Origin: Patescibacteria group bacterium
GTDB lineage: Bacteria; Patescibacteriota; Patescibacteriia; 2-01-FULL-39-33
Assembly (NCBI GenBank): GCA_041662745.1
Contig: JBAZRV010000002.1
Span: 85,785 to 149,784, forward strand
Direction: 5' to 3'
DNA length: 64,000 bases
A program made the translations under genes and the position numbers. The notes under the pieces are model-generated. The model worked only from the letters and a program-made list of their open reading frames with translations, had not been told where the DNA came from and made no database searches. Within the stretch, counting starts at the first letter, position 1; each line of letters starts with the position of its first letter. Positions 27,313 through 64,000 of the stretch are shown here, one piece after another.

Positions 27313-27610
27313 AAGTTGTCGTCTTGATTTTTTTAGCTTATTTCTGATATAATATTAAGGTATTAATTGATAATTTACAAGACCGCCATGAACAAATTAA
27401 TCGGTTTTATCGGCCAGGGTTGGATCGGCAAAAGTATAGACATATTTTTGCGCTCCGCCCCAGGATGATTGAGTGATGATAAATAACGCTTTCATAAGTC
27501 GTCGTCTTGATTTTTTTAGCTTATTTTTGATATAATATTAAGGTATTGATTGATAATTTACAAGACCACTATGAACAAATTAATCGGTTTTATCGGCCAG
27601 GGTTGGATCG
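27245..27610. repeat. direct tandem duplication of a 183-bp unit (27245-27427 and 27428-27610, ~97% identical)
   Basis: Aligned by eye: the offset is exactly 183 with about 6 mismatches. Each unit carries the 5' end of the minus-strand GT4 gene, the divergent intergenic region and the 5' end of the + strand dehydrogenase-family gene. The junction has gcaaaa microhomology. Confidence 0.9.
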
Positions 27611-28422
27611 GCAAAAATTATGCCGATGACTTTGAAGTTAGAGGTTATCAAGTGATTCGCTATTCTTTGGAAGAACCCTATCTCGCCAACAAGGAAAAAA
27701 TCAGCGAGTGCGATATCGTGTTTATTGCCGTGCCTACTCCTACCACTCAAGCGGGGTTTGATGATTCCATCGTCAGAAGCGCCGTAAAGCTGGTCGGCCA
27801 AGGCAAGCTTGCGGTAATCAAATCTACGATTCTGCCCGGTACGACAGAGTCAATCCAAGCGGAAAACCCAGGCGTTTATTTGTTTCATTCGCCGGAGTTT
27901 CTGTCCGTTTCCACCGCTTATGACGATTCGCGCCATCCGCAAAGGAATATTGTCGGCCTGCCCATAGATAATGAGGAATATAAAACCAAAGCCCGAGAGG
28001 TGATGTCGGTGTTGCCCCAAGCTGATTTTTCTCTTATTACTTCCGCCAAAGAAGCGGAGTTGTTCAAATATTTACGGAATTGCTTTTTTTACACCAAAGT
28101 CGTCTATATGAATATGCTTTATGATCTGGCTAAGAAACTGGGTTGCCGGTGGGAAGTGTTAAGGGAAATCATGTCCAATGATCCCTGGATCGGCAACATG
28201 CATATTGATCCGGTGCATAAAAGCGGCCGGGGCGCCGGCGGAGAATGCTTTATTAAGGATTTGGCCGCGCTTAGGCGTTTCCACAAGCAAAATCTGAACG
28301 ATGAAACGACGGATTGGGTTTTTTCCGCCTTGGAGAAAAAGAATATTGAATTACTGCTAAAAAGCCAAAAAGATTTGGATTTGCTCAAAGGCGTTTACGG
28401 CGAAGATATATTTAAGAGATAG
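27571..28422 (+). CDS. short UDP-glucose/GDP-mannose dehydrogenase family protein (NAD-binding and catalytic-Cys region only)
   Basis: IGFIGQGWIGKNYA Rossmann motif; FIAVPTPT...VIKSTILPGTT; GAGGECFIKDL matches the catalytic GGxCFxKD motif. About 284 aa, so it lacks the usual C-terminal UDP-binding domain. The ATG at 27571 is preferred over track start 27550. Confidence 0.5.
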   Translation: MNKLIGFIGQGWIGKNYADDFEVRGYQVIRYSLEEPYLANKEKISECDIVFIAVPTPTTQAGFDDSIVRSAVKLVGQGKLAVIKSTILPGTTESIQAENPGVYLFHSPEFLSVSTAYDDSRHPQRNIVGLPIDNEEYKTKAREVMSVLPQADFSLITSAKEAELFKYLRNCFFYTKVVYMNMLYDLAKKLGCRWEVLREIMSNDPWIGNMHIDPVHKSGRGAGGECFIKDLAALRRFHKQNLNDETTDWVFSALEKKNIELLLKSQKDLDLLKGVYGEDIFKR

Positions 28423-28438
28423 TTTGCTATGTAACCTG

Positions 28439-28458
28439 TTACGTAGCATGCTACGTAA
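28439..28458. promoter_or_regulatory. perfect 20-bp palindrome TTACGTAGCATGCTACGTAA, 12 bp upstream of the first gene of the 22-gene array
   Basis: Read directly; its reverse complement is identical; overlaps the expected RBS region of the gene starting at 28470. Confidence 0.35.
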
Positions 28459-28469
28459 CAATTTATCAC

Positions 28470-29657
28470 ATGCCTGCGGAAAACAAAAAAAGAATCTTGA
28501 TTTTTTCTTTGGCTTACCATCCGTTTGTGGGCGGAGCCGAAGTGGCTATCAAAGAAATTACCGAGCGATTGGGTGAAGATTTTGAATTTGACATGATCAC
28601 GGCCAACTTGAGTGGCCATGAGCCGAAGGAGGTTGAGAATTTTAACGGCCTTAACAAAGTTTATCGCCTCGGTTCCGGGAAACTTGATAAATATCGTTTT
28701 CCTTGGCTGGCCTATCGGAAGGCCCTGGAATTGCAACGGCAGAACGATTATGACTTGATTTGGGCGATGATGGCTAATCAAGCGGGCTGGGCGGCTTGGA
28801 AATTCAAGCGCCGATTTCCGCAAATCCCTTATTTATTGACCCTGCAAGAAGGGGACAGCGAGCGGGATATTTGGCTTCGCACTTGGTTTATCCGGCCGCT
28901 TTATAAGGCGATTTACCGCCGCGCCGATCGGATTCAGGCGATCAGTAATTTTTTGGCCCGGCGCGCCAAGCGTTTGGGCGCGAAGTGTCCGATTGAGGTA
29001 GTGCCGAATGGAGTAGATCAGTTAAAAATTAATAATGAAGAATTAAGAAATAAAAGTAATAGCATAAAAAGGGTTATCTCAGTTTCAAGGTTGGTTAATA
29101 AAAATGGCTTAGAGGATTTGATTAAAGCAATTGCGATAGTCAATAAAGACAATGATAAGCCGGTAATTTTAAAAATTATCGGAGAAGGAAGATTAAGAAA
29201 CGAGTTAGAAAAACTGATTAAAAAATTAAAAATAAATGACCGGCCTGTAGTAAAGGAATTAGACAAGGAGGAAATAGTTTTGGCGGGGCAAGTTTCTAAT
29301 AAGCAGGTGTATCAATATTTATCTCAAGCCGATGTTTTTGTCCGTCCCTCATTGTCCGAAGGTTTGGGTAACGCTTTTCTGGAAGCGATGGCTGCGGGGG
29401 TGCCGGTAATCGGCACGCCGGTCGGCGGGATTCCTGATTTCTTAAAAGGCGAGGAAGCGGGAGACGGGCAGACCGGTTGGTTCTGCGAAGTGAAAAATCC
29501 TGAAAGCATTGCGAAAAAGATTAGATTGATTTTTGATCCCCAAAATCAGGAATTAGTTAAAGTAGTAACAACTCGGGCTAAAAAGTTGGTGGAAGAAGAA
29601 TACGATTGGGATGCAATCACTAGTAAGATAGATAAAATTTTTACACAATTATTATAA
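28470..29657 (+). CDS. glycosyltransferase family 4
   Basis: SEGLGNAFLEAMAAGVPVIGTPVGGIPDFL E-x7-E motif. An internal AT-rich segment lies at ~28990-29290. Confidence 0.8.
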   Translation: MPAENKKRILIFSLAYHPFVGGAEVAIKEITERLGEDFEFDMITANLSGHEPKEVENFNGLNKVYRLGSGKLDKYRFPWLAYRKALELQRQNDYDLIWAMMANQAGWAAWKFKRRFPQIPYLLTLQEGDSERDIWLRTWFIRPLYKAIYRRADRIQAISNFLARRAKRLGAKCPIEVVPNGVDQLKINNEELRNKSNSIKRVISVSRLVNKNGLEDLIKAIAIVNKDNDKPVILKIIGEGRLRNELEKLIKKLKINDRPVVKELDKEEIVLAGQVSNKQVYQYLSQADVFVRPSLSEGLGNAFLEAMAAGVPVIGTPVGGIPDFLKGEEAGDGQTGWFCEVKNPESIAKKIRLIFDPQNQELVKVVTTRAKKLVEEEYDWDAITSKIDKIFTQLL

Positions 29658-29668
29658 ACTCTAAATTT

Positions 29669-31372
29669 ATGGCCGAGACAAACAAAAACTTTTGGCAAAA
29701 AAATGAAAAAAAGATTTTGTGGCTGATTATAATTTTAGCGGTGATCTTAAGATTCTGGAATATTTCTACTTTTGATGTCATGGTTGACCACGCCCTTTAT
29801 TCCGTTCGCGCGCTGGGTTGGTTTGATTATTTGGGCGGCGGCCAAACCGCCCCTGTTCAGTGGTTCGGCACGATCCCTGCTTGGGCGCTATTATCTTTCC
29901 ATGACTGCCCACCCTTGGTTTTTTTCATCCAGAAAATATTTTTTTCTATTTTAGGTGATAATACTTTTGCCTCCAGATTACCCCATGCCTTAGCCGGAAT
30001 TTTGAGCGTACTCTTGGTTTATCTGTCGGTAAAGAAAATCAAAAGCGTCCAAGCCGCTCTGTGGTCGGCCGTTGTTATGGCTGTTTCTTCTTATGCCGTC
30101 TGGGCTTCTTATGCTGGCTATCTGGAGGGAGTGGAAGTTTTGTTTATCGTGTTAAGCTTGTATTTTTTCATTTGTTATCTGGCCGATGGCAAAAATAAGA
30201 ATCTTTATTGGTGGGCAGCAGCCGCCGGCTTGGCTTTCTTGTCTAAATACACTTCTGTTTTCTTGCTGCCCGTCGGCTTATTATGCTTACTTGGCCTTAA
30301 TTATCGCGCGCTTAAGAATAGTTGGCAGAAAATTTTTTACTCCCTGTTGATTTTTTTGGGCGTAATCTCACCGGTGATTTTTTATAATATCATGGTTTTT
30401 AAATACCGCGGTCATTTTGACGCTTCATTGTCCGCCATGGTCGGCATGCACCCGCAAGATTATTCGGCGATTGCCGTTCGGGTGGTCAACGCTAATATTA
30501 TTGGAAATTTTTCCAATTTAATAAATTGCTTTCCCCTGGGCAGTTCTTGGCCCTTGGTCGCGATTTTTATTTTGGCCCTGACTTATCTTTTATTTAAGAC
30601 CATTCGCGGTCGAAGCGGCAAGGCGGAAATTTTTATCTTAGCGAACGTCTTGGCCGCCGGATTAATGTTTTGCTTCGGCGAGCCGGCCTACCGGCAGGTT
30701 TCTATTTTTATACCGTTTTTAGTTATTGTGGCCGCCATTCTTTTTGCCGATCTTAGCGTTTACTTATCAGGCAAAAAATATCATTTAGGTGGTGTTTTTA
30801 AGTTATTGGCTTTAGCCGTACTAGTGGCGGAGTTCGGTTATTGCGTGAATACTAATATCTTGCTTAAGTCCTGGGGTAGCGCTCCCTGGTTTTCTTCTTC
30901 CCAGCGCTTAGCCAGTAATGGCTGGAATGAATTGGAAATATATTGGCGTGATAATTTATTGCCGCCGGTTATGGATCGGCAGAAAATCAGGCGGCTGGAG
31001 GAAATGCCGCTCAGTTCGCGGGATTTTTCCGGCAAGAATGTTATTTTTTATGATGATAATGTAAATTGGTTTTCTTCTATGTGGTATATCGAAAAATACC
31101 CGTTGTATTATCGCGTTCCGCTTTTGCCGCTGTCTTATTTATTGAATCAGCCCCAAGCCCTGGAGCAGTTTAGATCTTTTGGCGCTAAGGATTTTTATTA
31201 TGTTTCCATTGTTAATCCGCAAGCCACAGATCCCGTGGTCAGTAAAAATGAGTCTTTGATGAAAGCCATTGAGCAATTAAACGCCAAATTGGTTGAGGAT
31301 AAAATCGGTTTTGTGGAAATTAAAAACGCCGAGGGCGAGGCGGCCTTCAGGATTTATAAATTAAATTATTAA
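29669..31372 (+). CDS. GT-C fold membrane glycosyltransferase, family 39/83-like (ArnT/PMT-type, uses a polyprenyl-P-sugar donor)
   Basis: About 11 TM helices; N-terminal loop motifs typical of ArnT/PMT_2; large C-terminal soluble domain. Confidence 0.6.
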   Translation: MAETNKNFWQKNEKKILWLIIILAVILRFWNISTFDVMVDHALYSVRALGWFDYLGGGQTAPVQWFGTIPAWALLSFHDCPPLVFFIQKIFFSILGDNTFASRLPHALAGILSVLLVYLSVKKIKSVQAALWSAVVMAVSSYAVWASYAGYLEGVEVLFIVLSLYFFICYLADGKNKNLYWWAAAAGLAFLSKYTSVFLLPVGLLCLLGLNYRALKNSWQKIFYSLLIFLGVISPVIFYNIMVFKYRGHFDASLSAMVGMHPQDYSAIAVRVVNANIIGNFSNLINCFPLGSSWPLVAIFILALTYLLFKTIRGRSGKAEIFILANVLAAGLMFCFGEPAYRQVSIFIPFLVIVAAILFADLSVYLSGKKYHLGGVFKLLALAVLVAEFGYCVNTNILLKSWGSAPWFSSSQRLASNGWNELEIYWRDNLLPPVMDRQKIRRLEEMPLSSRDFSGKNVIFYDDNVNWFSSMWYIEKYPLYYRVPLLPLSYLLNQPQALEQFRSFGAKDFYYVSIVNPQATDPVVSKNESLMKAIEQLNAKLVEDKIGFVEIKNAEGEAAFRIYKLNY

Positions 31373-31390
31373 CGCTAATCGTTATTTGCT

Positions 31391-32113
31391 ATGAAAGATA
31401 TTTTATTATTGCCCACCTACAACGAGAGAGAGAATGTCAAAATGATTATTCCTGAAATTTTTTCCCTTATTCCCGAAATAGTAGTCATGGTTATCGATGA
31501 TAATTCACCTGACGGCACGGCGCAAGCGGTGCAAGAGTTGATGACGATTTATCCCCGGTTAAGAATTTTGAAACGAGAAAAAAAGACCGGACTGGGCAAT
31601 GCCTATAAGGAGGCGATGCGTTTGGTTATGGCTGAAGACGGTGTCCGCTCGGTTATCACTATGGATGCCGATGGTTCTCATCAGCCCAAGTATTTGGTTG
31701 ATTTTTTGGCTAATATTAATGATTATGATTTAATCATTGGTTCGCGCTATATCCGGGGTGGCGGCGTAGAGAACTGGGAATTTTGGCGCCGTTGTTTAAG
31801 CCGTTTCGGCAATATTTATTCCAAGATTCTTACCGGCCTGCCGATTAATGATTTCACCGCCGGTTTTATGTGTGTTAAGGTGGATTTTTTAAAGCAGTTA
31901 GATTTGGTTAGTGCCGGCGCCTCGGGTTATTCTTTTTTGATTGAATTGAAATTCAATTTGATCCATAACCTAAAAGCCAGAGTCAAGGAAGTGCCGATTA
32001 TATTCAAAGTGAGAAGGGAAGGAGAATCCAAGCTGTCTAACTCAATTATCGGCGAGGGAATAATGACCCCGCTAAGAATTTGTTCCAGAAGAATATGGCA
32101 GAACAAAAAATAA
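31391..32113 (+). CDS. GT2 polyprenol-phosphate glycosyltransferase (Dpm1/ArnC-like)
   Basis: LLPTYNERENV...VIDDNSPDGT...DADGSH GT-A motifs; 240 aa. Confidence 0.8.
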   Translation: MKDILLLPTYNERENVKMIIPEIFSLIPEIVVMVIDDNSPDGTAQAVQELMTIYPRLRILKREKKTGLGNAYKEAMRLVMAEDGVRSVITMDADGSHQPKYLVDFLANINDYDLIIGSRYIRGGGVENWEFWRRCLSRFGNIYSKILTGLPINDFTAGFMCVKVDFLKQLDLVSAGASGYSFLIELKFNLIHNLKARVKEVPIIFKVRREGESKLSNSIIGEGIMTPLRICSRRIWQNKK

Positions 32114-35100
32114 TTTGCCCGATTTGCCGATCGGCTGACAATAAATTTTACGGCCAGAAAAATAATTTCAATCTGCGGTTATGCCGGGATTGCGATTTGC
32201 TTTTTGTTTGGCCGGTGCCGTTTGATTTAAAAGGAATTTATTCTCAAGATTATTTTGTTAACAGTCGGAATAACAGTGATTTCGGTTATACCAATTATGA
32301 TCAGGATAAAGAATCAATGCGCGAGGTATTTGTAAAAATCATCAGTCAGTTGGAAAAGCTTATCCCAGGTAGAAGAATTTTTGATGTCGGCGCGGCCACC
32401 GGTTATTTTTTGGACTTGACTAAGCAGCGGGGCTGGCAGACCGCGGGAACGGAAATATCTGACTACGCCGCTAAGGTCGCTAATGAACGCGGACATAGGG
32501 TTTTTTGCGGTGAGTTGGATCAGCTGCCAATTGAGGGTAAATTCGATGTGGTGACGATGTGGGACGTACTGGAGCATATTGGCGATCCCCTGGCCTATCT
32601 CAAGAAGGCTAATGACCTATTGGTTGATGGCGGCTTAGTGGCCATCAATACTGTAGATCGGGGCAGCGCTTTGGCCAGGGTTCTTGGGTTGAATTGGCAT
32701 TTGATTGTCCCGCCGGAGCATTTGAATTTTTATTCCCGCGAAAATTTAGAGATCGTTTTGCGACAAGCCGGGTTTGAAATCATTAGTATTTCCACTATCG
32801 GAAAGAAATTTTCTCTGGCGTATATTTTTAAGACGTTGTATTTCTGGCAGGGCTGGGGCTTATGGCGCAGTTTGTCAGTGTTTTTTGACAAACCGTTTTG
32901 GCGCCGCTGGTCTTTGCCGGTAAACTTGCGTGACAATATTTATATTTTGGCGAGAAAGAGAAGCAGTTCGATTGTCCGATTGCCAGGGGAAAACGCCGGT
33001 AAGCGAAAAAATTTATTAATTTGTGCCGGCATTTATCCGCCGGATATCGGTGGCCCGGCAACTTATGTGAAGGGTTTAGAAAGGGGATTAGCCGAAGAAT
33101 TTAATGTCAAAATCGTGACTTACGGCGACCAAGAAGGCCAAGAACCCTCTCACGTTTATAAGATATCTCGCCAACAGCAAGTTGTTTTTAGATATTTAAA
33201 ATATTTTTGGCAGGTGGTTAAGTTATTGCCGCAAGCGGATGTTGTTTATATTCAGGGGCCGGTTTCCGAAGGCTTGCCGGCTGCTGTGGCTTGCGGTTTA
33301 AGGCGCAAGGCATACCTATTAAAAATCGTCGGTGATTTTGCTTGGGAGCAGGGCAGCCAGCGTTATGGCGTCAAGGAGAATCTTGATAATTTTCAGCACA
33401 ATAAATACGGTTTCAAGATTGAATTATGGCGGCGGATTGAAAAATGGGTGGCGCAGAAAGCCAAGTTGGTTGTCGTTCCCAGTAATTATTTGAAAAAAGT
33501 CGTTACCGGTTGGGGCATTAAAGCTGACAAAATAAATGTCATCTATAATGCGATTGAAAGAATTGATATTATTGAAAACCGAGAGCAGCTAAGAAATAAG
33601 TATGGCCTGGATGGTTTTGTTATGTTATCGGTCGGTCGCCTAGTCCCCTGGAAGGGCTTGGCCGCCCTGATTGAAGTAGTCAAAGAATTGTCTGCAGAAA
33701 TTAATGATTTAAAATTAGTGATTATCGGTGACGGCCCGGAGCGTCAGAATTTGGAGAATTCAGTTAAGGCCAAAGGGTTGGAGAAAAACATTATTTTTAC
33801 CGGGCAATTAAGCAGGTCTGAGGTGGCTGCTTACTTGAAGGCCGCAGATTTGTTTATTTTAAACACTTCCTATGAGGGGTTAAGCCATGTTTTAATTGAG
33901 GCTATTAAGGCCGATTTGCCGATAGTTACGACCGCTGTTGGCGGTAATCCTGAATTAATGGAGCAATATGGCCACGGCTTTATGGTGGCCTATAATAATA
34001 AGCCGGAGTTGATTCAAGCAATCAAACAAGCTAGAAAAATTAATCGTCCGATTGAGACGACTGGAGATTTTTTATTGCAGTTCGATTATGATTTTATGGT
34101 TAGTCAGACCGGTCGGTTATTGCGGGCTGAAGCGGTTAGAACCGATATTGCCATTACCGATCAAAGACGAGAGAAAATTTTAAACGACTGTGATCGGCAA
34201 ACTATTGTTTTAGTTCAGATTAATTTTAGCCAAGACCATTCGGAAACAGTTTTGCCCCTAGGCATCTTATCGGTCGGCAGCCATTTGAAACGTTGCGGCT
34301 ATAAAGTTGAACTGGTAAATATTACGGAAAAACAAATTACTGAGATAGCCGCGATTATCGCCGAGAAAAATCCGCTCTGTGTCGGCTTATCAGTTATGAC
34401 CGGCGTGCAGACGCGCCAGAGCGCTGAATTATCCAAAAAAATAAAAACTTTAAATAAGGCCATACCAATTATTTGGGGCGGTATTCATCCGTCGCTTTTG
34501 CCAGAGCAGTGTCTGGGTGAGGATTACATTGATTTCGTAGTTATTTCTGAGGGAGAGATAACTACGACGGAATTAGTAGAAAAAATAATCAGAGGAGGGG
34601 ATTTTCATGATGTTTTAGGCATCGGCTATAAGCAAGCCGGAAAAATTACCATCAATCCCAACCGCCCGTTTATTGCCAACCTTGATGATTTCCGCCTTGA
34701 TTGGTCTTTATTGGATTTGGAGCTTTATATTTCTCCGTTGAAAAATTTTAAGCGAGTTATTGCTTACAAGGCCTCGCGCGGTTGCCCGTTTAATTGCTCT
34801 TTTTGCTATAATAATGCCTTTAATCAGAATAAGTGGCGTGTTTGGTCGGTGGAGGCGGTAGCGGAGGACATTAATTGGCTGAAAGAGCATTATCAGATTG
34901 ATGCCGTTAAATTTTACGATGATAATTTTTTTGTTGATAAGAATCGCGCTTGGCAGATCTTAGAAAAAATAAATTTACCGACGCATTTGGAGGTGCGAAT
35001 TGATACGATTGACGACGACTTGGCTCAAAAACTCAAAGAGTTTAGGGTTTTTGACATGTTAATCGGCGTCGAGTCGGGCAGCGATCGCATTTTAAGTCTA

Positions 35101-56122: not shown

Positions 56123-56770
56123 ATGATATTTCAAAATAAATATTGGGAGCGGAGAGTTTTAAATAAAAGAAGGCAACCATTTAACGAAGTAGTACGGTGT
56201 TATGTTTTTCCAAAAATATGTCAAATTTTAAAAGTAATCCCGATAAATAAAAATACTCAACTTTTAGATGTGGGGTGTGGAAATGGATTCTATAGTTATT
56301 ATTTTAATGAGATATGCGATGTTACTGGAATAGATTATTCCCATGAACTTATTAGACAAAATCCGATAAAAAAAACAATTCTTATGGACGCAAATGATAT
56401 TAGGTTTGCTGATGATTCTTTTGATATAACATTCTGTGGCGCGTTACTTCATCACGTGTTAAATGAAAAAAGAGTTATTAATGAAATGAAAAGAGTGTCT
56501 AAGGAGTATGTTATTATTATCGAACCAAATAGGAATAATCCATTTTTATTTTTATTTTCACTTTTTGTAAAGGAGGAAAATAAAGCATTGAGGTATTCTA
56601 TGAAGTATTTAAAAAAAATGGTTAAAGATTGTGATTTAAAAATAATATCAACATTCTCACATGGATTAATAGTGCCAAATAAAACTCCAAGAATTTTATT
56701 ACCAATATTAAAATATTTTGAGATTAAATATCCATTAGGTATGATGAATATACTAATTTGTAAAAAATAA
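56123..56770 (+). CDS. class I SAM-dependent methyltransferase (AT-rich gene)
   Basis: LLDVGCGNGFYSYYF motif I. GC is markedly lower than its neighbours. Confidence 0.65.
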   Translation: MIFQNKYWERRVLNKRRQPFNEVVRCYVFPKICQILKVIPINKNTQLLDVGCGNGFYSYYFNEICDVTGIDYSHELIRQNPIKKTILMDANDIRFADDSFDITFCGALLHHVLNEKRVINEMKRVSKEYVIIIEPNRNNPFLFLFSLFVKEENKALRYSMKYLKKMVKDCDLKIISTFSHGLIVPNKTPRILLPILKYFEIKYPLGMMNILICKK

Positions 56771-56793
56771 ACGCAAAGGTATTTTTTTATCAA

Positions 56794-57495
56794 TTATTTT
56801 TTACCCAAACAAATTATGTTTGGGTAAAAAAATAATTGAGTCGGCAGATCATGGATTTCAATAGAATGCCAACCGGTTTTCTCTAATATTTTTTTGTATT
56901 CTGAACTTCGATAATAATGCGGTTTATTTATTCTATGGCCAAAAATTTTGCTGGAGGCTTTGTCGGCGGAGAAGAAATGGAAAAAAGCAACAAGCTTTTC
57001 AATGATGAGCGAGCTGGAGATGGAAAGCAGATAACGGAAGAAGCGATCCCGACTCATGGTTTTAATAATAATGACCCCATTCGGTTTGGTTTTTTTTCGG
57101 CAATCTTCTAGCATATTCAGGACTTCTTGGCGGGACATTAAAACCTCCACATCAATGACGATTGTGGCGTCGAACTCCTCTTCTTGCAGACTCCCGACTT
57201 CCGTTTGGATAAATGTTAAATTTTCAGGCTTGAATGATACCTGATTCGCTTGCTTGATGCGATCGGCTGAAGGGTCAATGGCCACTACTTTTAAGGTGGG
57301 TCGTTTAAAAGCGAAAAAATAGGAAAAAACTCCGAACCCGCAACCCAGGTCAAGCAATTTTCCGCTGGTCGGCACGTATTGGGAAATTGTTTCCAGCGGC
57401 GTTGTCGTGAATCTGACGAAGGTAATTAATTTTTCTACCGCTCCCAATCCGAGATAATTATTTTTTATCTGTTGGTATTCTTTTTGGAATCTCAT
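56794..57495 (-). CDS. class I SAM-dependent methyltransferase (paralog of 56123..56770)
   Basis: LLDLGCGFGVFSYFF motif I. Confidence 0.65.
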   Translation of the reverse strand: MRFQKEYQQIKNNYLGLGAVEKLITFVRFTTTPLETISQYVPTSGKLLDLGCGFGVFSYFFAFKRPTLKVVAIDPSADRIKQANQVSFKPENLTFIQTEVGSLQEEEFDATIVIDVEVLMSRQEVLNMLEDCRKKTKPNGVIIIKTMSRDRFFRYLLSISSSLIIEKLVAFFHFFSADKASSKIFGHRINKPHYYRSSEYKKILEKTGWHSIEIHDLPTQLFFYPNIICLGKK

Positions 57496-57521
57496 AAATA
57501 ATATTTTTCTAAAATGAATTT

Positions 57522-58949
57522 TTAGGCTTTTTTAATCATAATTCTAACGAAAATCCTAAATCCTTCAAACATTGTTTTTAAGGAATCAAAAGAGTTTATT
57601 TGTTTAAGCTTCCGCCAAACATAGATCGGCCGCAAATAGAATTCGCGGAAACCTCTTTTCTGCCAATAAACCAATTCTTCCGCCGTTAAGTTTTTTTGCA
57701 CCAGTAGCGGCGACGTGTTAGTAAGGGGAGCGAAGGCTTCCCAGGGCGTATCGGAAGCGATAAAGCCTTCATCTTTGGCGTAGTAATACAGATCTGAGCC
57801 AGGCACCGGGCAGGTGATAAAAAAGGTCGCATTATCTAAATCCAGGCTTTTGGCGAAATTGATCGTCTCTTTAATGGTTTCTATCGTCTCGCCGATGTTA
57901 CCCAGCATGAAACTGGCATGAGCCAATATATTGTGGTGTCTTAAGATCGCCACTGCTTGCCGCCCCTTGTCCGTGGTGGTTTGCTTGCGCATAATGTCTA
58001 ATATTTTCTGCGAGCCGGATTCTAGTCCTAAGGAAATTTTCTTACAGCCGGCCTTTGACATGATGGAGGCTAATTCATCGTCGATGGTATCGGCTCGGGA
58101 AAAACAGATCCAAGCAATCGGCAGTTTTTTGTCTATGATTTTTTGGCAGACTTCAATCGCTCTTTTTTTGTTTAAAGTGAAATTATCGTCCAAAATGCTG
58201 AATTCTTTGATATTGTATTTATTGATGCATTCTTCAATTTCAGCCAGCAAATTGTTAGCGCTGCGATAGCGTAAACGGCGATTCCAAATGCTTTTGGAAA
58301 CACAATGGATACAGTTGTGGGCGCAGCCGCGGCTGGTTTGGATCGGTGAGCATTGCTCCTCAGTCAATTTTTTAGTTGGGGCGGAACGGTAAAGTTTTAA
58401 ATCAAATAAATCGCGGGCTGGAAAAGGGATTTCATCAAGATTTTCAATCATTGGCCGTGGCAGATTGCCTATAATTTTGCCGTCGCGCTTAAAATACAAG
58501 CCGGAAATATTTTCCCAATCCGTCCGTTTGTCTTTGACGGCTTGGACCAATTCAGAAAAAGTCACTTCGCCTTCCCCAATGACAGCAAAATCTACGAATG
58601 GGTTGGTTAAAACTTCAATTGGCAGAATCGTCGGATGAGTGCCGCCTAGTATGGTGACGCAATCCAGTTTTAATTCATCTTTAATGATTTGGCAAATTTT
58701 AAAAACGTGATTGACGGTTGGCGACAGACAAGTAAAGCCGACGACGTCGGGCCGCTCATGCGCAAAATAATCCTTTATTTCCTTATAGCCGATGCCTAAG
58801 GCTTCAGTATCTAATATTTTAATTTCGCAATCAACCTTATTGCGCAAATAACCAGCTAAGTAAGCCAGATTAAAAGGCATTGCATGGCCGCCGGATTCTT
58901 TCATGCCTTCAAAGTTTATGTAGGGCGGATTTACCAAGATAACTTTCAT
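57522..58949 (-). CDS. B12-binding domain radical SAM protein (class B)
   Basis: QTSRGCAHNCIHCVSK; B12-binding N-terminal domain. Confidence 0.8.
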   Translation of the reverse strand: MKVILVNPPYINFEGMKESGGHAMPFNLAYLAGYLRNKVDCEIKILDTEALGIGYKEIKDYFAHERPDVVGFTCLSPTVNHVFKICQIIKDELKLDCVTILGGTHPTILPIEVLTNPFVDFAVIGEGEVTFSELVQAVKDKRTDWENISGLYFKRDGKIIGNLPRPMIENLDEIPFPARDLFDLKLYRSAPTKKLTEEQCSPIQTSRGCAHNCIHCVSKSIWNRRLRYRSANNLLAEIEECINKYNIKEFSILDDNFTLNKKRAIEVCQKIIDKKLPIAWICFSRADTIDDELASIMSKAGCKKISLGLESGSQKILDIMRKQTTTDKGRQAVAILRHHNILAHASFMLGNIGETIETIKETINFAKSLDLDNATFFITCPVPGSDLYYYAKDEGFIASDTPWEAFAPLTNTSPLLVQKNLTAEELVYWQKRGFREFYLRPIYVWRKLKQINSFDSLKTMFEGFRIFVRIMIKKA

Positions 58950-58961
58950 AATTATATTTTA

Positions 58962-60389
58962 TTATATTTTGAGCAGTTTCAGACCCGCTTTAAAATTATT
59001 TTTTAAATTATTCCAGTTTCTTATTTCTTTTAATCTTCGCCAGATATAGCGGGGAGCTAAGTAATATGAACGATAAGCTTGAATTAATGTTTTAAATAAC
59101 TGTTCGCGAGTAAAATTTTCTTCCCAGGCCGGTGGATGAAAATCTGCCTGAGGATGTTTAGAAAATTCACGCCAATAATCCTGTTTGATAATGCCTTCTT
59201 TTAGGCCTTTTAAATACAAGTCAGTCGCTGGAAAAGGGGTAAGTACGGAAAAGTGCACATAATCAGGAAATAGTTCTTTAGCTAGTTTAATTGTTTCTTT
59301 AATATCATCTTCGGTTTCCGTTGGTGAGCCGATCATGAAATAACCCGCTGTCTCAATGCCGGCTTTTTTGGTTAATGCAAAAGCTTTTTTGATCATCGGA
59401 ATTGTAATGCCTTTTCTTAAAACATTAAGAATTTTTTCGGTGCCGGCTTCTACTCCATAATGGATTCTGGTGCAACCAGCTTTTTCCATTAATATTAGTA
59501 ATTCTTCATCAACCGTATTAACTCGAGCGCGAATATCCCAATTGAGGATTATATTTTTTTCCATTATCAATCGGCAGATGTCTACCACTCTTTGACGATC
59601 AATCGTAAAAGTATCGTCGTAAATAAAAACCTCTTTAATGCCCAGGGCGGCGATCTCGGCCAATTCCTGGACGACATTTTGTGCTGAACGTGCTCGGAAA
59701 ATTTTGCCTAAATGGGGCCGATCGCAAAAGAGACATTGATAAGGACAGCCACGGGAAGTGAACATTGTGGTTGTCGGATTTTTTTGCGCGATGATGGAAT
59801 AGTATTTTTTGTAAGGGGTTAAGGTACGCGCTGGAAATGGCAGATCGTCTAACTGCATAATCAAATCTCGGCAACCGTTATTAATGATATTACTCGCTTG
59901 TCTGAAGACAATACCCTTAATCGTTGGCCATTGTTCCGGTTGTTGGAGATTATTAATTAAATCATAAAAAGGCTGTTCGCCTTCACCCAGGATTAAAAAA
60001 TCAATTTCTGGATTAGCCATCGTTTCTTCCGGGTAAATATTGACATGCGGGCCGCCGAGGACAATGGGAATTTCTGGCTGAGCCGCTTTAATTTTTTTGG
60101 CTGCCATCAAAACATCAATAATCGTGAAAGTCATAGCGGTAATGCCAACGAGTTCTGGTTTTTCTAATTTAATGATTTCTGCTAGCGCATCAAGATTGAT
60201 TTTTTCTACTGGGCAGTCGATAATTTTTACTTCATGGTTAGAATGTTTCAATAGGTAGCCAGCCAGATACATAAGTCCTAGTGGTGGTAAAAAATCCATA
60301 CCCGATTCTAGCTCCTTAGGCATATCGCTTTCTATAATGTGTTGAATGGGGGGATTAATCAAGAGTATTTTCATAGAGGTATTTTTCAA
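58962..60389 (-). CDS. B12-binding domain radical SAM protein (class B)
   Basis: TSRGCPYQCLFCDR; B12-binding N-terminal domain. Confidence 0.8.
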   Translation of the reverse strand: MKNTSMKILLINPPIQHIIESDMPKELESGMDFLPPLGLMYLAGYLLKHSNHEVKIIDCPVEKINLDALAEIIKLEKPELVGITAMTFTIIDVLMAAKKIKAAQPEIPIVLGGPHVNIYPEETMANPEIDFLILGEGEQPFYDLINNLQQPEQWPTIKGIVFRQASNIINNGCRDLIMQLDDLPFPARTLTPYKKYYSIIAQKNPTTTMFTSRGCPYQCLFCDRPHLGKIFRARSAQNVVQELAEIAALGIKEVFIYDDTFTIDRQRVVDICRLIMEKNIILNWDIRARVNTVDEELLILMEKAGCTRIHYGVEAGTEKILNVLRKGITIPMIKKAFALTKKAGIETAGYFMIGSPTETEDDIKETIKLAKELFPDYVHFSVLTPFPATDLYLKGLKEGIIKQDYWREFSKHPQADFHPPAWEENFTREQLFKTLIQAYRSYYLAPRYIWRRLKEIRNWNNLKNNFKAGLKLLKI

Positions 60390-61203
60390 TTGATTGGCAA
60401 TCGTATGAGTTTAATAAATAAATTAATTTTTTCCAACTATTCTTAGTATTGAAAAATTTTATGATTTTTTTTATGATTGGCATTGAAATATCTGGCGGTT
60501 TGGCTAGGAAATCAAAGGGATGAAAATGGATAGTGGTTGCACCTTGAGTGGTCTTTTTTGTTAACATTTTTTTAAAAATTTTCCAAGGTGTAATTCTTAT
60601 GTAGATACCGCCGGTCACTGGCCAATTAAGAAGTGACCCGCTATATACGGCCAAAGGAAACTCGTATAGATGTTTGTTTATTAAATAGGGCAATCGCGGC
60701 GCTTTCTTGATACCGTAGGTGCTGTTTGGAAAAATCAGGGACGTGAGTCTTGGTAATTTTAGCGGAAAAACAGAGGAGTCATATCTTAACTGGTTGTCTT
60801 CAAGCACTTTTATGACCCAATTTTGGTTATCATTAGTTAAAGAAAAATTAACAGCGCGATGACCCAGTACGGCCTTTCCGGTTAAAGAAAGTATTTTTTC
60901 TTTCATGATCTTAATTTCTTGATCAAAGTTTTGATAATTCTTTACCCAAAGTGGGCGATGATCAAAGGAGTGAATGGCAATTTCGTGTCCATGCACAGCG
61001 AGTTTTTTTATCATCGCCGGTTCTTGTTCAATAACTTTCCCAGTGACGAAGAAAGTCGCAGTCGCTTGGTTGGATTTAAGAGCGGCAATCAGTTGATCGA
61101 CAAATTCTTCTAAATGTTCAGTTTCTGATCCATTAAGATGGGGTTGGAGGGATAATGATTCAAACCAGTATTCAAGATCAAAAGTCAGAATGAGTTGTTT
61201 CAT
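60355..61203 (-). CDS. polysaccharide deacetylase-family protein (DUF3473/PEP-CTERM-locus-type sugar deacetylase-like)
   Basis: N-terminal ILTFDLEYWF and HGHEIAIHSFDH motifs. Confidence 0.5.
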   Translation of the reverse strand: MKQLILTFDLEYWFESLSLQPHLNGSETEHLEEFVDQLIAALKSNQATATFFVTGKVIEQEPAMIKKLAVHGHEIAIHSFDHRPLWVKNYQNFDQEIKIMKEKILSLTGKAVLGHRAVNFSLTNDNQNWVIKVLEDNQLRYDSSVFPLKLPRLTSLIFPNSTYGIKKAPRLPYLINKHLYEFPLAVYSGSLLNWPVTGGIYIRITPWKIFKKMLTKKTTQGATTIHFHPFDFLAKPPDISMPIIKKIIKFFNTKNSWKKLIYLLNSYDCQSIEKYLYENTLD

Positions 61204-61215
61204 AAGAGCTTTTCT

Positions 61216-62091
61216 TTAGCGGTAGATTTCTCTTCTTAAGGCGGCAATCTGATCGGCTAAAAGTCCAAAAAAGAAAATAATAATAGCGGATAAGACAACT
61301 AAAATAGTACTTTTGGCGATGTTATTCATAATTAATCCGGCAATTAGCATAATTAATCCGGTTAGCCCCAAAAGCAGGCCGATTGGCAGGAAAAATCTAA
61401 GTGGGGAAAAGAGCATTGTTAGACGCATGACCAGGATTAGGTAAGTAAAAAATTCCCTGGGCTTAACCATGCTTTTGCCACCGCCTCGTTTGTCGATTTG
61501 GATTGGAATAAATTTTACATTAAGCCCTTCTTTTATGAAAGCGAAAAGGGAAGTCGTAGAGCAAGAAAAACCATTAGGTAGAATGTGTGAGAACCTAAGA
61601 AATTCATTTTTTTTGATCAACCTTAAACCGCAATTAAAATCAGAAATTTTTTTGTTTAAAAGGTATATCGCTAACCAATGTATAAGTTTTTTTCCGGGTT
61701 GCCTTAGCCAGGGGCCTTGGTAGCCGACGCGTTCACCGGAAATCAGATCGAAATTATCCATAAAGGGAACCATTTCTTTAATGTATTCCGGGCGATGTTG
61801 GCCGTCTGCATCAAAAAATATTAGCCACTCGGACTGGGCAGTTTTGGCGCCGGTTTTGAGCGCAGCACCATAACCCTTATTGTAGGGTTGAACGATTATT
61901 TTTATATCGGTAATATTTTTTAAAATATCCGAAGTATTGTCAGTTGAAGCATCATTGACGACAATAATCTCGAAATTTAATGACAAATTGTTGATGGAAT
62001 TTTTAAGCCCCTCGATAGTTTTGCCGATCGTCTCCGCCTCATTGTAGGCAGGTATAATGATTGAAAGGGATTTTTCTGATGTTTCTGGCAT
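61216..62091 (-). CDS. GT2 polyprenol-phosphate glycosyltransferase with C-terminal TM helices (GtrB/ArnC-like)
   Basis: LSIIIPAYNEAETI...VVNDASTDNT...FFDADGQH; two C-terminal TM helices. Confidence 0.75.
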   Translation of the reverse strand: MPETSEKSLSIIIPAYNEAETIGKTIEGLKNSINNLSLNFEIIVVNDASTDNTSDILKNITDIKIIVQPYNKGYGAALKTGAKTAQSEWLIFFDADGQHRPEYIKEMVPFMDNFDLISGERVGYQGPWLRQPGKKLIHWLAIYLLNKKISDFNCGLRLIKKNEFLRFSHILPNGFSCSTTSLFAFIKEGLNVKFIPIQIDKRGGGKSMVKPREFFTYLILVMRLTMLFSPLRFFLPIGLLLGLTGLIMLIAGLIMNNIAKSTILVVLSAIIIFFFGLLADQIAALRREIYR

Positions 62092-62099
62092 AATAATTT

Positions 62100-63095
62100 T
62101 TAGGATTTATTAAATTCAACATGCCAACCCATAAAATCAGATTGACTTAGTGAACAATTCTGGCATAGCTTATATTTTTTGCATAAACCATCTTTTCTAA
62201 CTTGTTTTGCTTCGGGGCTGAAGAATTGTTTCAACAATTTCGATCCTTTAATATTAGGCATTTTGACATCGGTATTCACATCAATACAGCAAAGTCCCAG
62301 ATCGCCATTCCAGCAAACAACGGCCTGAGTCAGCGGTACGGTGCAGACGGTTTTTTTGATTTTTGATTTTTTTCGTAAATATTTTTCATTTTTTGGCAGT
62401 AGATACTGGTATTTATCACGCATCTCCAGTGTTGTCACCGAACCCAAGCTTAAGGATTTAAATTGGATGCTGTCAGCCCCAATGGATCGTGCCCAATCCA
62501 GGATTTTAGTATTTTCATTTTCCGAAAACGATGTTAATAGGGATTGAATACAAACGCTCGGATACTGACGATTCAAGTTGCGTTTTATTGTTAAGAAATT
62601 TTCAATATTTTGTTTAACTGTTTCAAAATTAGAGCCAAAACGGTAGGCCTCATGTGATTCTTTAGTGGCGCCATCAAGGCAGAGATGAATTAATTTTAAA
62701 TCCGCCGCTATTATTTTTTTTGATAATTCTTCTGATAGCATCATGGCGTTGGTGCTTAAGAAGGTGTCATGACTATGCTGGCTGGCATAAGCAATAAATT
62801 GATCGATTTGAGGATGAAGCAATGGTTCGCCGGCAAAAATAAAAGTTATTCGCGGCTTATCTTGAAATTCTTTAAATTCGTCAATAATTGATTTATACAT
62901 TTCAAAATCCATAAAACCTCGTTCGCGGTTCATGGCAAAGTTCGTGGGACAGACCGGACAACGCAGATTACAATTATTTGTCACTTCAATCGCAATATCC
63001 TTAGGCGACTTGTCAAAGTTGCTTAATGGATAAAAGTTAGCCATGAGGCCAGCTATATCCCAAAAAAATTGAGATTTTTTAAGCTGTTTTATCAT
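62100..63095 (-). CDS. radical SAM protein with SPASM/twitch-like C-terminal Cys cluster
   Basis: EVTNNCNLRCPVCPT; C-terminal CTVP...CWNGDLGLCCIDVN...CQNCS cysteines. Confidence 0.7.
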   Translation of the reverse strand: MIKQLKKSQFFWDIAGLMANFYPLSNFDKSPKDIAIEVTNNCNLRCPVCPTNFAMNRERGFMDFEMYKSIIDEFKEFQDKPRITFIFAGEPLLHPQIDQFIAYASQHSHDTFLSTNAMMLSEELSKKIIAADLKLIHLCLDGATKESHEAYRFGSNFETVKQNIENFLTIKRNLNRQYPSVCIQSLLTSFSENENTKILDWARSIGADSIQFKSLSLGSVTTLEMRDKYQYLLPKNEKYLRKKSKIKKTVCTVPLTQAVVCWNGDLGLCCIDVNTDVKMPNIKGSKLLKQFFSPEAKQVRKDGLCKKYKLCQNCSLSQSDFMGWHVEFNKS

Positions 63096-63165
63096 AATAA
63101 AATTTTACAAATTAACGATCGCGGTATAAATCATATTTTTTAGCTTTGTTGCGTACTGAAATAAA

Positions 63166-64000
63166 TCACTGTCCTCGGCCGCCAAAAACAACCCCAATCG
63201 TCTTTAAGGTGATGCTTAAATCAAGAAGCAGCGAGCGGTTTTTTATATAATATAAATCATATTTTAGTTTTTCCACAGTTTCCTTTTGTGAACCGCCGTA
63301 AGCCGGACCCAGTAGCTGTGCCCAGCCGGCCAGTCCTGGTTTGACTAAGAGCCGTTCGCTGTAGAATGGTATCTCTTGCGCTAGGGTAGCAGTAAATTCC
63401 GGTCGTTCCGGCCTGGGGCCGATCAGTGACATTTCGCCCCGGAGAATATTAAGCAATTGAGGAATTTCGTCCAACCTGGTTTTTCTCATTATCCGGCCGA
63501 AACGGGTAACGCGCGCGTCATTTTTTGTCGCCCATTGAGCGCCGTTTTTTTCGGCATCCTTGACCATGGAACGGAACTTCATCGCCAAGAACTCCTTGCC
63601 ATTTTTGCCCACCCGGATTTGCCGGAAAATAACTGGTCCAGGGCTTTCTATCTTAATAATTAAAGCGATAAACGGCATTAGTGGGGTAGCAACTATTAAA
63701 CCGGCAATTGCTAGAATAACGTCTATTAGGCGCTTGAAAATCTCATAGGATTTTTTGGAGTTTTCAGTCAGGTTTTCCAAAAACCAGCCCAGCTCAATGG
63801 ATTCTACCGGAACTTTCTGCGCAATGGTCTCGTAAAAATCAGTTAACCGATGCACGTCAATGCCCAGTGACAAGCAGTCAAAAATTTTCTTGGCGGTTGA
63901 GGCATCAGCATGCAGGGTATTATCGGCAGTTAAAATATCAATATTATTATCTATGCAATATTTTTTTAGATCTTCAGGTATCTGGCTGCTTACTTGCGCG
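63166..64000 (-). CDS. polyprenyl-phosphate sugar phosphotransferase (bacterial sugar transferase, WbaP/PglC family), 5'-partial
   Basis: IESPGPVIFRQIRVGKNGKEF...RLDEIPQLLNILRGEMSLIGPRPERPEF signature. The frame stays open from the track's TTG at 63873 up to nt 64000, so the N-terminus lies outside the window. Confidence 0.75.
   Translation of the reverse strand, partial: AQVSSQIPEDLKKYCIDNNIDILTADNTLHADASTAKKIFDCLSLGIDVHRLTDFYETIAQKVPVESIELGWFLENLTENSKKSYEIFKRLIDVILAIAGLIVATPLMPFIALIIKIESPGPVIFRQIRVGKNGKEFLAMKFRSMVKDAEKNGAQWATKNDARVTRFGRIMRKTRLDEIPQLLNILRGEMSLIGPRPERPEFTATLAQEIPFYSERLLVKPGLAGWAQLLGPAYGGSQKETVEKLKYDLYYIKNRSLLLDLSITLKTIGVVFGGRGQ

Follow-up and report, generated by a model that had tools for sequence, protein, structure and literature searches.

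We analysed a stretch of 64,000 nucleotides (hereafter the window) from a Patescibacteria group bacterium, corresponding to positions 85,785 to 149,784 of contig JBAZRV010000002.1, in which genes for radical S-adenosylmethionine (SAM) enzymes are interleaved with glycosyltransferase genes between positions 27571 and 64000 (Table 1). Pfam scans of all 30 open reading frames (ORFs) from 27550 to 63873 returned six radical SAM proteins with a B12-binding domain, three with a SPASM domain and four class I methyltransferase domains, the same numbers that an initial annotation had read from the sequence. The region further encodes ten Leloir glycosyltransferases (GTs; six GT4, three GT2 and one GT9), three GT-C enzymes, a Wzx-like flippase, two deacetylases, a flippase-like protein of the LPG_synthase_TM type and a priming polyprenyl-phosphate glycosylphosphotransferase (PGT). 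The tight gene packing reported earlier is evident from a median gap of 8 nt over 29 junctions, with gaps of at most 12 nt at 19 of them and overlaps at five (4, 4, 11, 19 and 20 nt). Coding sequence accounts for 98.7% of the region, and about 33% of all encoded residues belong to radical SAM proteins and domains. The arrangement is real and not an assembly artefact, because two independent assemblies, each from another sequencing run, match it at 100% identity, one over 28438-40223 (L002) and one over 43720-64000 (L085). With the second of these contigs, the sequence could be extended by about 1.4 kb beyond the end of the window. In L085 (19447-21428), the PGT gene is complete (445 aa at full length, reaching position 64503), and the next genes encode a GtrA_DPMS_TM protein of 143 aa and then an NAD-dependent epimerase/dehydratase. 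The cluster thus indeed continues beyond the window, as had been supposed; the PGT ORF listed as 63166..63873 with a TTG start is an edge artefact, its frame running to the window end. On the left, the cluster very likely starts at 23799 or earlier, because the order of Wzy_C gene, minus-strand GT4 gene, dehydrogenase-like gene and fusion gene is kept in a relative at 75% identity (the P0003 contig). The 23 kb upstream contain genes for L1, L11, NusG, extracytoplasmic function (ECF) sigma factors, DUF5667/DUF5666 proteins and a MacAB-type ABC system, a second Wzy_C + TPR gene (11218) and a tRNA-Glu. An identical copy of the protein at 51823 is deposited as a hypothetical protein of a Patescibacteria group metagenome-assembled genome. 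Given this, the upstream gene content and the Patescibacteria lineages from which the closest GT4 homologs come, the locus is chromosomal and belongs to a bacterium of the Patescibacteria (candidate phyla radiation, CPR).

All nine radical SAM proteins keep the CxxxCxxC motif and match PF04055 at 50-100 bits (cut-off 29.5). PF02310 lies above its cut-off of 32.1 bits in all six proteins assigned a B12-binding domain (43.6-88.3 bits, B12_1 being the weakest), which bears out both the domain and the cluster motif called previously. The family-invariant N-domain motifs GGxH and GEGE occur together in four paralogs, the fusion protein described below has GGxH alone, and B12_1 has neither. SPASM1, SPASM2 and SPASM3 match PF13186 at 33.2, 24.1 and 32.1 bits (cut-off 21.5) and contain 5, 5 and 7 C-terminal cysteines, respectively. 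The initial annotation had also described a methyltransferase, GT and B12-radical SAM cassette recurring four times. Two of the four contain a GT, whereas those at 53699-56123 and 56794-58962 do not; within the former, 55128-56117 encodes the flippase-like LPG_synthase_TM protein. Moreover, we rejected the idea that these are duplicated, recurring modules, because the radical SAM paralogs are only 25-36% identical to one another and the methyltransferases have no detectable mutual similarity.

Concerning their chemistry, none of the nine radical SAM proteins reached a curated NCBIfam cut-off. For B12_3 and B12_5, the best-conserved pair, the best model was HpnJ (TIGR03471), matched over nearly the full length at 250 and 234 bits (cut-off 577.6), and for the four other class B proteins it was BchE (TIGR02026), at 137-250 bits (cut-off 481.35). 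Methylase families scored below these two: HpnR gave 76-128 bits (cut-off 650), KedN5 68-110 (700), TsrM-type 39-56 (500) and PhpK 122-170 (600). The AprD4 family model NF033070 gave 61-131 bits (cut-off 500). Among solved structures, B12_3 matched AprD4 best by sequence (E 1.6e-31), followed by 9CCB, a glutamine C-methyltransferase of methyl-coenzyme M reductase (PMC12931638). The B12_3 structural model, a Rossmann plus TIM-like fold with a predicted local distance difference test score (pLDDT) of 92.6, likewise had AprD4 as its top whole-length Foldseek match (TM-score 0.77/0.80), with MgmA, TsrM, OxsB, CysS and TokK next at 0.63-0.73. AprD4, a dehydratase of sugar 1,2-diols, binds no cobalamin, and neither it nor HpnJ nor BchE is a methylase (PMC12931638). 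Because the best fold match is cobalamin-free, 'B12-radical SAM' is used here as a domain-level label for the six proteins, and their use of cobalamin is only putative. We know of no diagnostic sequence motif for cobalamin binding in class B enzymes. Of the SPASM proteins, SPASM3 aligns to BtrN (4m7t, E 4e-14) over residues 25-123, a match of only about 100 residues. The BtrN-type label given earlier to this group thus fits the N-terminal part of SPASM3, but not SPASM1 and SPASM2, which lack a BtrN match and are weakly nearest to the SuiB-like 5v1q, SkfB and GDGT-MAS enzymes.

These matches bear on the leading alternative, in which all six class B enzymes would be cobalamin-dependent C-methyltransferases of the GenK/GenD1/Fom3/MoeK5 type and, together with the four class I methyltransferases, would make a heavily C-/O-methylated lipid-linked oligosaccharide. 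Although PF02310 is present in all six and the GGxH and GEGE motifs in four, the best family matches (HpnJ, BchE) and the best structure (AprD4) are non-methylating, the last being cobalamin-free as well. The fold also matches cobalamin-bound MgmA, TsrM, TokK and CysS, yet the KedN5, HpnR and TsrM-type models score lower, and the class I methyltransferases to which these enzymes are recurrently fused or adjacent would be partly redundant. Most characterised B12-radical SAM enzymes do methylate, including the sugar C-methylases GenK, GenD1, Fms7 and MoeK5 (PMC12931638); against this, cobalamin uptake and salvage genes were absent from the 64-kb window. We consider a purely methylating locus unlikely. 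The expectation of the initial annotation that such enzymes typically methylate therefore appears overstated for B12_3 and B12_5, and since their nearest characterised relatives, HpnJ and AprD4, are non-methylating, C-methylation should not be taken as the default chemistry of this locus. As HpnJ, AprD4 and BchE are no methylases and class I methyltransferases are recurrently fused or adjacent, the radical chemistry is most likely a mixture, in which C-H functionalisation such as C-methylation would occur alongside non-methylating reactions, whether dehydration or deoxygenation, contraction of the ring, or oxidation or epimerisation.

A physical link between the radical SAM enzymes and glycosylation is a single gene that joins a zinc ribbon, a class I methyltransferase, a GT4 and a B12-binding radical SAM enzyme in one polypeptide. 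Its cluster-binding motif is CPFNCSFC, and the ATG start at 32095, which had been proposed before, is supported as it keeps an N-terminal CPIC...CRDC zinc ribbon. Among 5.8e9 proteins, the GT4 + B12-radical SAM architecture was found in only three protein clusters; the methyltransferase::GT4::B12-radical SAM fusion is thus very rare. Relatives keep the gene order of fusion, GT4, GT4, deacetylase, methyltransferase-like, SPASM, GT4 and B12-radical SAM. In the 75% relative, the fusion takes the form GT4_a-like::GT4::radical SAM and the next gene encodes GT4::methyltransferase, the methyltransferase domain being part of that GT4 instead. In a second relative at 74% identity (L001), the radical SAM proteins are 81-89% identical to those of the window, as compared to 69-74% for the GT, methyltransferase and deacetylase genes, and within the left module conservation is highest for B12_2. 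L001 lacks B12_1 altogether, the GT4_d stop joining the B12_2 start (window 41517 to 42865; L001 9141-9160). B12_1 is thus an accessory gene with a presence/absence polymorphism, and its N-domain is degenerate.

The radical SAM part of the fusion belongs to a subclade whose members are 36-43% identical to it, but only 23-30% identical to the other paralogs in the window. In an exhaustive search over 1.84e9 representatives, followed by Pfam and BLAST analysis, proteins of the same subclade were found to be independently fused to GT4 (P0236) and GT9 (P0241), and in four cases to a class I methyltransferase (P0235, P0252, P0334 and P0361). Split counterparts of such pairs are present in the window, with 7 nt separating B12_2 and GT9, 21 nt GT4_d and B12_1, and 26 nt MT_c and B12_4. 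Owing to the fusion in the window and the independent GT4, GT9 and methyltransferase fusions of the same subclade, a functional tie of these radical SAM enzymes to glycosylation and methylation is supported at the level of gene architecture.

Table 1. Predicted gene products at the locus, with positions in the window and supporting evidence (scores in bits, with cut-offs where given; percentages are identities to L001 orthologs)
Gene product	Position	Strand	Evidence
Wzy_C + TPR membrane protein; candidate ligase, polymerase or O-oligosaccharyltransferase	23799..26114	+	Pfam Wzy_C 60.7
GT4, divergently transcribed	26164..27312	-	Pfam Glycos_transf_1 142; position kept in P0003 contig
Short NDP-sugar dehydrogenase-like protein, 283 aa	27571..28422	+	PF03721, PF00984 (N-terminal and central domains only)
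GT4_a	28470..29657	+	Pfam
GT-C, PMT_2/ArnT-like, 9 transmembrane-like segments	29669..31372	+	PF13231 89.5
Small GT2, polyprenyl-phosphate sugar synthase-like	31391..32113	+	PF00535
Fusion: zinc ribbon + class I methyltransferase :: GT4 :: B12-binding + radical SAM	32095..35631	+	Pfam
GT4_b	35638..36768	+	Pfam; 72%
GT4_c	36773..37810	+	Pfam; 70%
Polysaccharide (N-acetylhexosamine, HexNAc) N-deacetylase, PgaB/IcaB-like	37807..38562	+	PF01522 98.8; TIGR03938 119, under cut-off of 322
Methyltransferase-like, 215 aa, marginal	38567..39214	+	PF08241 22.9 vs 21.2; 69%
SPASM1, radical SAM/SPASM	39231..40349	+	PF04055 81.8, PF13186 33.2; CNLNCCMC; 81%
GT4_d	40354..41490	+	Pfam
B12_1, B12-binding-domain radical SAM	41512..42864	+	PF02310 43.6, PF04055 82
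B12_2, B12-binding-domain radical SAM	42866..44281	+	Pfam; 89%
GT9, heptosyltransferase-family	44289..45437	+	PF01075 51.8
Wzx-like MOP flippase, 12 transmembrane-like segments	45455..46813	+	PF01943 56.7 vs 28.2
GT4_e	46810..47979	+	Pfam
GT2_b	47969..48925	+	Pfam
SPASM2, radical SAM/SPASM	48934..50022	+	PF04055 50.3, PF13186 24.1; CNSRCLMC
GT-C, PMT-like, 10 transmembrane-like segments	50047..51819	+	PF02366 23.7 vs 22.7
Predicted GT-C-fold membrane protein + C-terminal alpha/beta domain, 11 transmembrane-like segments	51823..53547	+	Fold
B12_3, HpnJ/AprD4-like B12-domain radical SAM	53720..55147 (alternative start 53699)	+	PF02310 82.4, PF04055 98.3
LPG_synthase_TM flippase-like membrane protein	55128..56117	+	PF03706 132; TIGR00374 70 vs 43.2, passes
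MT_b, class I SAM methyltransferase	56123..56770	+	Pfam
MT_c, class I SAM methyltransferase, adjoining B12_4	56794..57495	-	Pfam
B12_4, BchE-like B12-domain radical SAM	57522..58949	-	Pfam; BchE 250 vs 481
B12_5, HpnJ-like B12-domain radical SAM, conserved B12_3 partner	58962..60389	-	Pfam; HpnJ 234
Polysaccharide deacetylase + DUF3473, XrtA-type-like	60355..61203	-	PF01522 65.3, PF11959 64.2; TIGR03006 152, under cut-off of 276
GT2_c, polyprenyl-phosphate sugar synthase-like, 3 C-terminal transmembrane-like segments	61216..62091	-	PF00535 125
SPASM3, radical SAM/SPASM, 7 C-terminal Cys	62100..63095	-	PF13186 32.1; N-terminal core nearest BtrN
Priming PGT	63166..64000, cut by window end	-	PF02397 228.7; TIGR03025 312 vs 295.6

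That the region is a polyprenyl-linked glycoconjugate locus, as the initial annotation had it, is supported by a PGT that passes TIGR03025 and by the presence of Wzx, three GT-C enzymes and two small GT2 proteins. The two GT2 proteins had been taken for polyprenyl-phosphate sugar synthases. Their best family matches point in this direction (PpgS, AglJ and a Dol-P-hexose transferase for the protein at 31391; AglJ, ArnC, PgfS and PpgS for GT2_c), although all remain under their cut-offs. The protein at 51823, previously listed as possibly GT-C, had no Pfam match at threshold (PMT_2 being subthreshold), reached a GT-C probability of 0.7% in hhalign and left a PDB profile search empty. Its AlphaFold (AF2) model (pLDDT 90.2) had GT-C proteins as the first 22 Foldseek PDB matches without exception, among them STT3/AglB/PglB, ArnT, ALG9/12, AftA/B and Pmt, and the protein is thus predicted to adopt the GT-C fold. 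In L001 (10574-13274; P0184), its homolog is fused to an N-terminal GT4 in a protein of 982 aa, an unusual combination of a cytoplasmic Leloir GT with a GT-C that acts extracytoplasmically. The protein at 55128 passes the generic flippase-like model TIGR00374 and does not match the HpnL model.

Part of this gene set recurs outside the lineage. The right-hand cassette comprises a GT-C, a small GT2, a deacetylase, two B12-radical SAM proteins, the flippase-like protein and the PGT, and parts of it occur in other phyla at 47-58% identity. Its core is B12_3, orthologs of which (56-73%) were found, for instance, in a Thermodesulfobacteriota metagenome-assembled genome and in unclassified bacteria. 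In all four contexts retrieved for the right module (L003, L004, L086 and L087), a GT2 of about 290 aa stands beside the B12_3 ortholog, those in L086 and L087 being 49-50% orthologs of GT2_c. An LPG_synthase_TM protein and a PGT are found there in three of the four, the LPG_synthase_TM orthologs adjoining those of B12_3 in L004, L086 and L087, and a B12_5 ortholog (50-55%) accompanies B12_3 in L003, L004 and L086. Two contexts have a SPASM radical SAM protein, two an AsnB-like amidotransferase and one a deacetylase, and GT-C or unannotated polytopic proteins are frequent as well. The AsnB-like glutamine amidotransferase (GATase_6/7, about 665 aa; L086 6579-8585, L087 4578-6572) occupies the position of the deacetylase, which suggests that the same lipid-linked sugar undergoes a different nitrogen chemistry there. 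Scans of public genome and metagenome contigs with the B12_3 alignment gave no close ortholog, the best matches having 38% and 43% identity.

To place the locus in a wider context, we compiled a census of 90 loci of at least 12 kb from the B12_3 family alignment (30-43% identity) and compared them by BLAST with the window proteins. Their sources are uncultured Bacteria and Archaea of great diversity. At least two B12-radical SAM paralogs are encoded in 49 of the 90 and at least three in 29; a small GT2 of the polyprenyl-phosphate type is present in 51, any GT in 58 and a SPASM radical SAM protein in 25. GT density amounts to 1.2-2.75 GT ORFs per 20 kb. GTs usually make up about 1-2% of genes, and set against this figure, with no matched control, they are, as a rough estimate, several-fold enriched. 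The initial annotation had called the number of radical SAM genes in one glycan locus unusual. This applies to characterised loci, whereas multi-paralog arrays with GTs are common in uncultured Bacteria and Archaea; the present locus is not unique but exemplifies, in well-resolved form, a genomic theme that is widespread and uncharacterised. Among the most extreme arrays are L139 (Ga0315268_10000637), with nine B12-radical SAM paralogs in 21 kb, the highest number in the census, and L047 (Omnitrophica UBA6253), with seven B12-radical SAM and four SPASM radical SAM proteins in 17.6 kb. Six or seven paralogs each are found in L035, L113, L132/L152 and L034, and a small GT2 usually lies near such extreme arrays.

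Several characterised systems resemble parts of the locus. In hopanoid biosynthesis, the glycosyltransferase HpnI, the deacetylase HpnK and HpnJ act in turn to convert a lipid-linked GlcNAc to a cyclitol ether, and a similar mode of action to that of HpnJ has been proposed for calditol synthase Cds (PMC12583986, PMC13459092). The window would share with it the logic of a GT, a deacetylase and a class-B-type radical SAM enzyme operating on lipid-linked glucosamine, since B12_3 and B12_5 have as neighbours a GT2, a deacetylase and a membrane protein from the LPG_synthase_TM superfamily. HpnL, whose function in the hopanoid pathway is not known, belongs to the same superfamily. In contrast to hopanoid loci, the window has no squalene-hopene cyclase, hpnH or other hopanoid genes, its lipid is most likely polyprenyl phosphate, its deacetylase is of the PF01522 type, the flippase-like protein is not matched by the HpnL model, and there are several radical SAM paralogs instead of one. 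A second parallel is offered by three-component systems for decoration with lipid-linked monosaccharides, namely ArnC/ArnD/ArnEF/ArnT, PpgS/Rv3779 and GtrA/GtrB/GtrV; in Arn-type systems, the deacetylase acts at the lipid-linked stage. The likeness consists in a GT2 with C-terminal transmembrane helices (best matches including ArnC and PpgS), a deacetylase, a GT-C and a small GtrA-like flippase just past the window edge. Candidates for all component types of Arn/Gtr-type systems (GT2 synthase, small flippase, GT-C) are thus present, none of them at an equivalog cut-off. To our knowledge, no Arn/Ppg/Gtr-type system includes radical SAM enzymes. By analogy, the right-hand cassette resembles the logic of both ArnC/D/T and HpnI/K/J.

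The remaining parallels concern individual enzymes and the locus as a whole. AprD4 and BtrN, the top solved matches to B12_3 and to the SPASM3 core, both have aminosugars or aminocyclitols as substrates, and HpnJ and AprD4, as nearest characterised relatives, both act on glucosaminyl groups attached to an aglycone. AprD4, however, is only 22% identical to B12_3 (131 bits against 500 for NF033070), and differs in being cobalamin-free and in belonging to an aminoglycoside cluster and not to a lipid-linked glycan locus. GenK, GenD1/GntE, Fms7 and MoeK5, the last from a phosphoglycolipid pathway, share the architecture of B12 domain plus radical SAM and the use of glycoside sugars (PMC12931638), but come from actinomycete secondary-metabolite clusters, are never fused to a GT and show no specific sequence affinity to the proteins of the window. 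With Wzx/Wzy-type O-antigen, exopolysaccharide and S-layer loci, the window has in common, at the level of domains, a PGT, Leloir GTs, Wzx, two Wzy_C proteins (11218 and 23799) and a methyltransferase-GT fusion. WsaE and WbdD are multidomain methyltransferase-GT enzymes of this kind. The differences lie in the nine radical SAM enzymes, the CPR host and the chain-length regulator, of which none was found in the window. Full-text searches of the literature gave no description of B12-domain radical SAM enzymes in polyprenyl-linked surface-glycan loci or in CPR bacteria, and the sugar-acting class B enzymes listed in a 2026 review all stem from antibiotic pathways (PMC12931638). What is new here is the combination of a Wzx/Wzy-type glycan locus with predicted radical tailoring of sugars.

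Taken together, we favour, with a rough probability of 0.55, the interpretation that this is an envelope glycoconjugate locus in which the radical SAM proteins would serve as sugar-tailoring enzymes coupled physically and genetically to GTs. Domain identities, synteny and fusions are directly observed, from which we infer substrates, order of steps and reaction types. The genes suggest a pathway in two tiers. In the first, the PGT would prime polyprenyl phosphate, and the GT4, GT2 and GT9 enzymes would lengthen a polyprenyl-PP-oligosaccharide at the cytoplasmic face, with the fusion protein, B12_1, B12_2, SPASM1, SPASM2, the PgaB-like deacetylase and methyltransferases modifying residues during their addition. 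Wzx would then flip the product, and the upstream Wzy_C + TPR proteins would polymerise it or ligate it onto an acceptor. In the second tier, whose gene content is conserved across phyla, the membrane-anchored GT2_c may make polyprenyl-P-HexNAc, the DUF3473 deacetylase may free the amine, and B12_3 and B12_5, together with B12_4, SPASM3 and two methyltransferases, may tailor the lipid-linked aminosugar. The LPG_synthase_TM protein or the GtrA-like protein would flip this tailored aminosugar, and one of the three GT-C enzymes would transfer it onto the extracellular glycan.

The individual parts of this scheme differ in strength. We tentatively consider a lipid-linked monosaccharide as substrate of B12_3/B12_5, at somewhat less than even odds; at least one ring contraction or deoxygenation is rather doubtful, and ring contraction specifically is improbable. 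In the most explicit version, which we hold to be similarly improbable as a whole, B12_3 and B12_5 would rearrange or deoxygenate polyprenyl-phosphate-linked glucosamine without methylating it, yielding a product that a GT-C installs on the surface and that could be a carbocyclic aminocyclitol formed by ring contraction, or a deoxy or branched sugar. The envelope interpretation gains from the PGT and the flippase-like protein both passing curated cut-offs. Further points in its favour are the operon-like packing, the fusions of radical SAM enzymes to GT and methyltransferase domains, the stronger conservation of the radical SAM genes in L001, the recurrence of the cassette across phyla, the census and the nearest characterised relatives. 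Several points weigh against it. No protein reaches an equivalog cut-off, so that every enzymatic assignment stands at the family level, and the HpnJ-like scores of B12_3 and B12_5 are less than half of the 578-bit cut-off. The best structural match is the cobalamin-free AprD4, though the N-domains score well on PF02310. In addition, the family of the deacetylase is not the same in detail as that of HpnK and ArnD, the AsnB-like amidotransferase replaces it in L086 and L087, and we know of no LPG_synthase_TM protein with a proven glycolipid-flipping role.

Besides the purely methylating alternative, the radical SAM enzymes might modify the lipid, be it the polyprenyl carrier, a glycolipid anchor or membrane lipids, with the GTs building only the head group; models would be HpnP/HpnR, GrsA/B, Tes and the ladderane and membrane-spanning lipid synthases. 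The B12-radical SAM proteins do match the lipid-biosynthesis model TIGR04072 weakly (106-149 bits, cut-off 360), and the SPASM proteins match Tes and GDGT-MAS at 40-48 bits and PDB entry 7tol at E 1e-5 to 6e-9, but these scores are no better than generic similarity of the radical SAM core. The context is membrane-associated and includes the flippase-like protein, yet the radical SAM proteins themselves have no transmembrane segments except for a marginal one in B12_5, lipid-biosynthesis genes were not found in the window, and the fusions join GT4, GT9 and methyltransferase domains instead of lipid-synthesis domains. Modification of the lipid is therefore very unlikely. Equally hard to sustain is a small-molecule glycoside that is secreted or anchored in the membrane, for instance an aminoglycoside-like compound or a moenomycin-like phosphoglycolipid antibiotic. 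The substrate of MoeK5 is a lipid-linked sugar. This enzyme (listed in PMC12931638) would offer a precedent, and the nearest solved relatives AprD4 and BtrN tailor aminoglycosides; against this, a set of at least ten GTs together with a PGT, Wzx, Wzy_C proteins and three GT-C enzymes is the mark of a locus that assembles envelope glycans, and the cassette spans many phyla in GT-rich loci. Furthermore, Pfam scans of the window detected no 2-deoxy-scyllo-inosose synthase, aminotransferase, prenyl-phosphoglycerate synthase, resistance or export genes. Scarcely credible is a glycosylated ribosomally synthesised and post-translationally modified peptide (RiPP), with the radical SAM enzymes modifying a precursor peptide that the GTs then glycosylate: SPASM1 and SPASM2 are weakly nearest to the peptide maturases named above and the B12-radical SAM proteins match the RiPP enzyme ApyD (101-190 bits, cut-off 750), but the only sizeable intergenic gap (172 nt) of this almost wholly coding region holds no plausible precursor ORF, on which ground we rejected a RiPP cluster, peptidase and RiPP recognition element genes are missing, and the PGT/Wzx/GT-C machinery is lipid-linked. 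An anti-phage defence function, prompted by PF20706 'GT4-conflict' matches, was also rejected, as PADLOC gave only generic matches to the radical SAM core (pVip about 50 bits, PDC-M51A 68-79 bits) and none to the GT4 proteins.

Class B radical SAM enzymes are among the largest enzyme groups lacking known function. The value of the locus of radical SAM and GT genes lies in its fusion enzyme, in a delimited cassette found across phyla and in shifting the default hypothesis away from methylation. Locus, cassette and the radical SAM-GT and radical SAM-methyltransferase fusions link a large uncharacterised clade, spread over CPR bacteria, DPANN and other archaea, Omnitrophota, Elusimicrobia and others, to the assembly of lipid-linked surface glycans. 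If the envelope interpretation is true, the envelopes of many uncultured microbes would bear radical-made sugars that are C-branched, deoxygenated or carbocyclic. This would be relevant to how episymbiotic CPR bacteria attach to their hosts, to recognition by phages and the immune system, to the corrinoid dependence of minimal genomes and to new biocatalysts. Should B12_3 and B12_5 in particular rearrange or deoxygenate a lipid-linked glucosamine without methylating it, the multi-paralog arrays in dozens of lineages of uncultured bacteria and archaea would encode an unrecognised class of radical-made, possibly hydrolysis-resistant residues in surface glycans. For biochemistry, the single-polypeptide methyltransferase::GT4::radical SAM enzyme is a self-contained starting point.

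Some further features of the region are of note. MT_c weakly matches the model of the corrinoid protein-associated methyltransferase CpaM (35 bits, cut-off 180), probably through generic class I similarity. The dehydrogenase-like protein at 27571 scores 125 bits on TIGR03026, under the cut-off of 190. It is a conserved short form (283-285 aa) without the C-terminal UDP-binding domain and not a truncated pseudogene, since a counterpart of 285 aa is encoded in the P0003 contig (gene 4688-5545). Around its start, 27245-27427 and 27428-27610 form a tandem duplication of 183 bp in perfect register with 97% identity, which runs from the 5' end of the minus-strand GT4 gene through the divergent promoter region into that of the dehydrogenase-like gene, and leaves a truncated extra gene start; the duplication is either real or an artefact of assembly or strain variation. 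A promoter and terminator scan of 53400-57000 gave counts no different from those of shuffled sequence. GC content falls from about 0.42-0.44 at 28-34 kb to 0.35-0.40 at 34-64 kb, with positive GC skew throughout, and the cluster may be of mosaic origin. Upstream of it, the products of 6775-10344 (1189 aa, no Pfam domain), 11218-13428 (the second Wzy_C + TPR protein) and 13557-14768 (fn3-containing) are candidate surface proteins or glycan acceptors; ECF sigma factor genes and a gene for a DUF5667 protein flank their genes.

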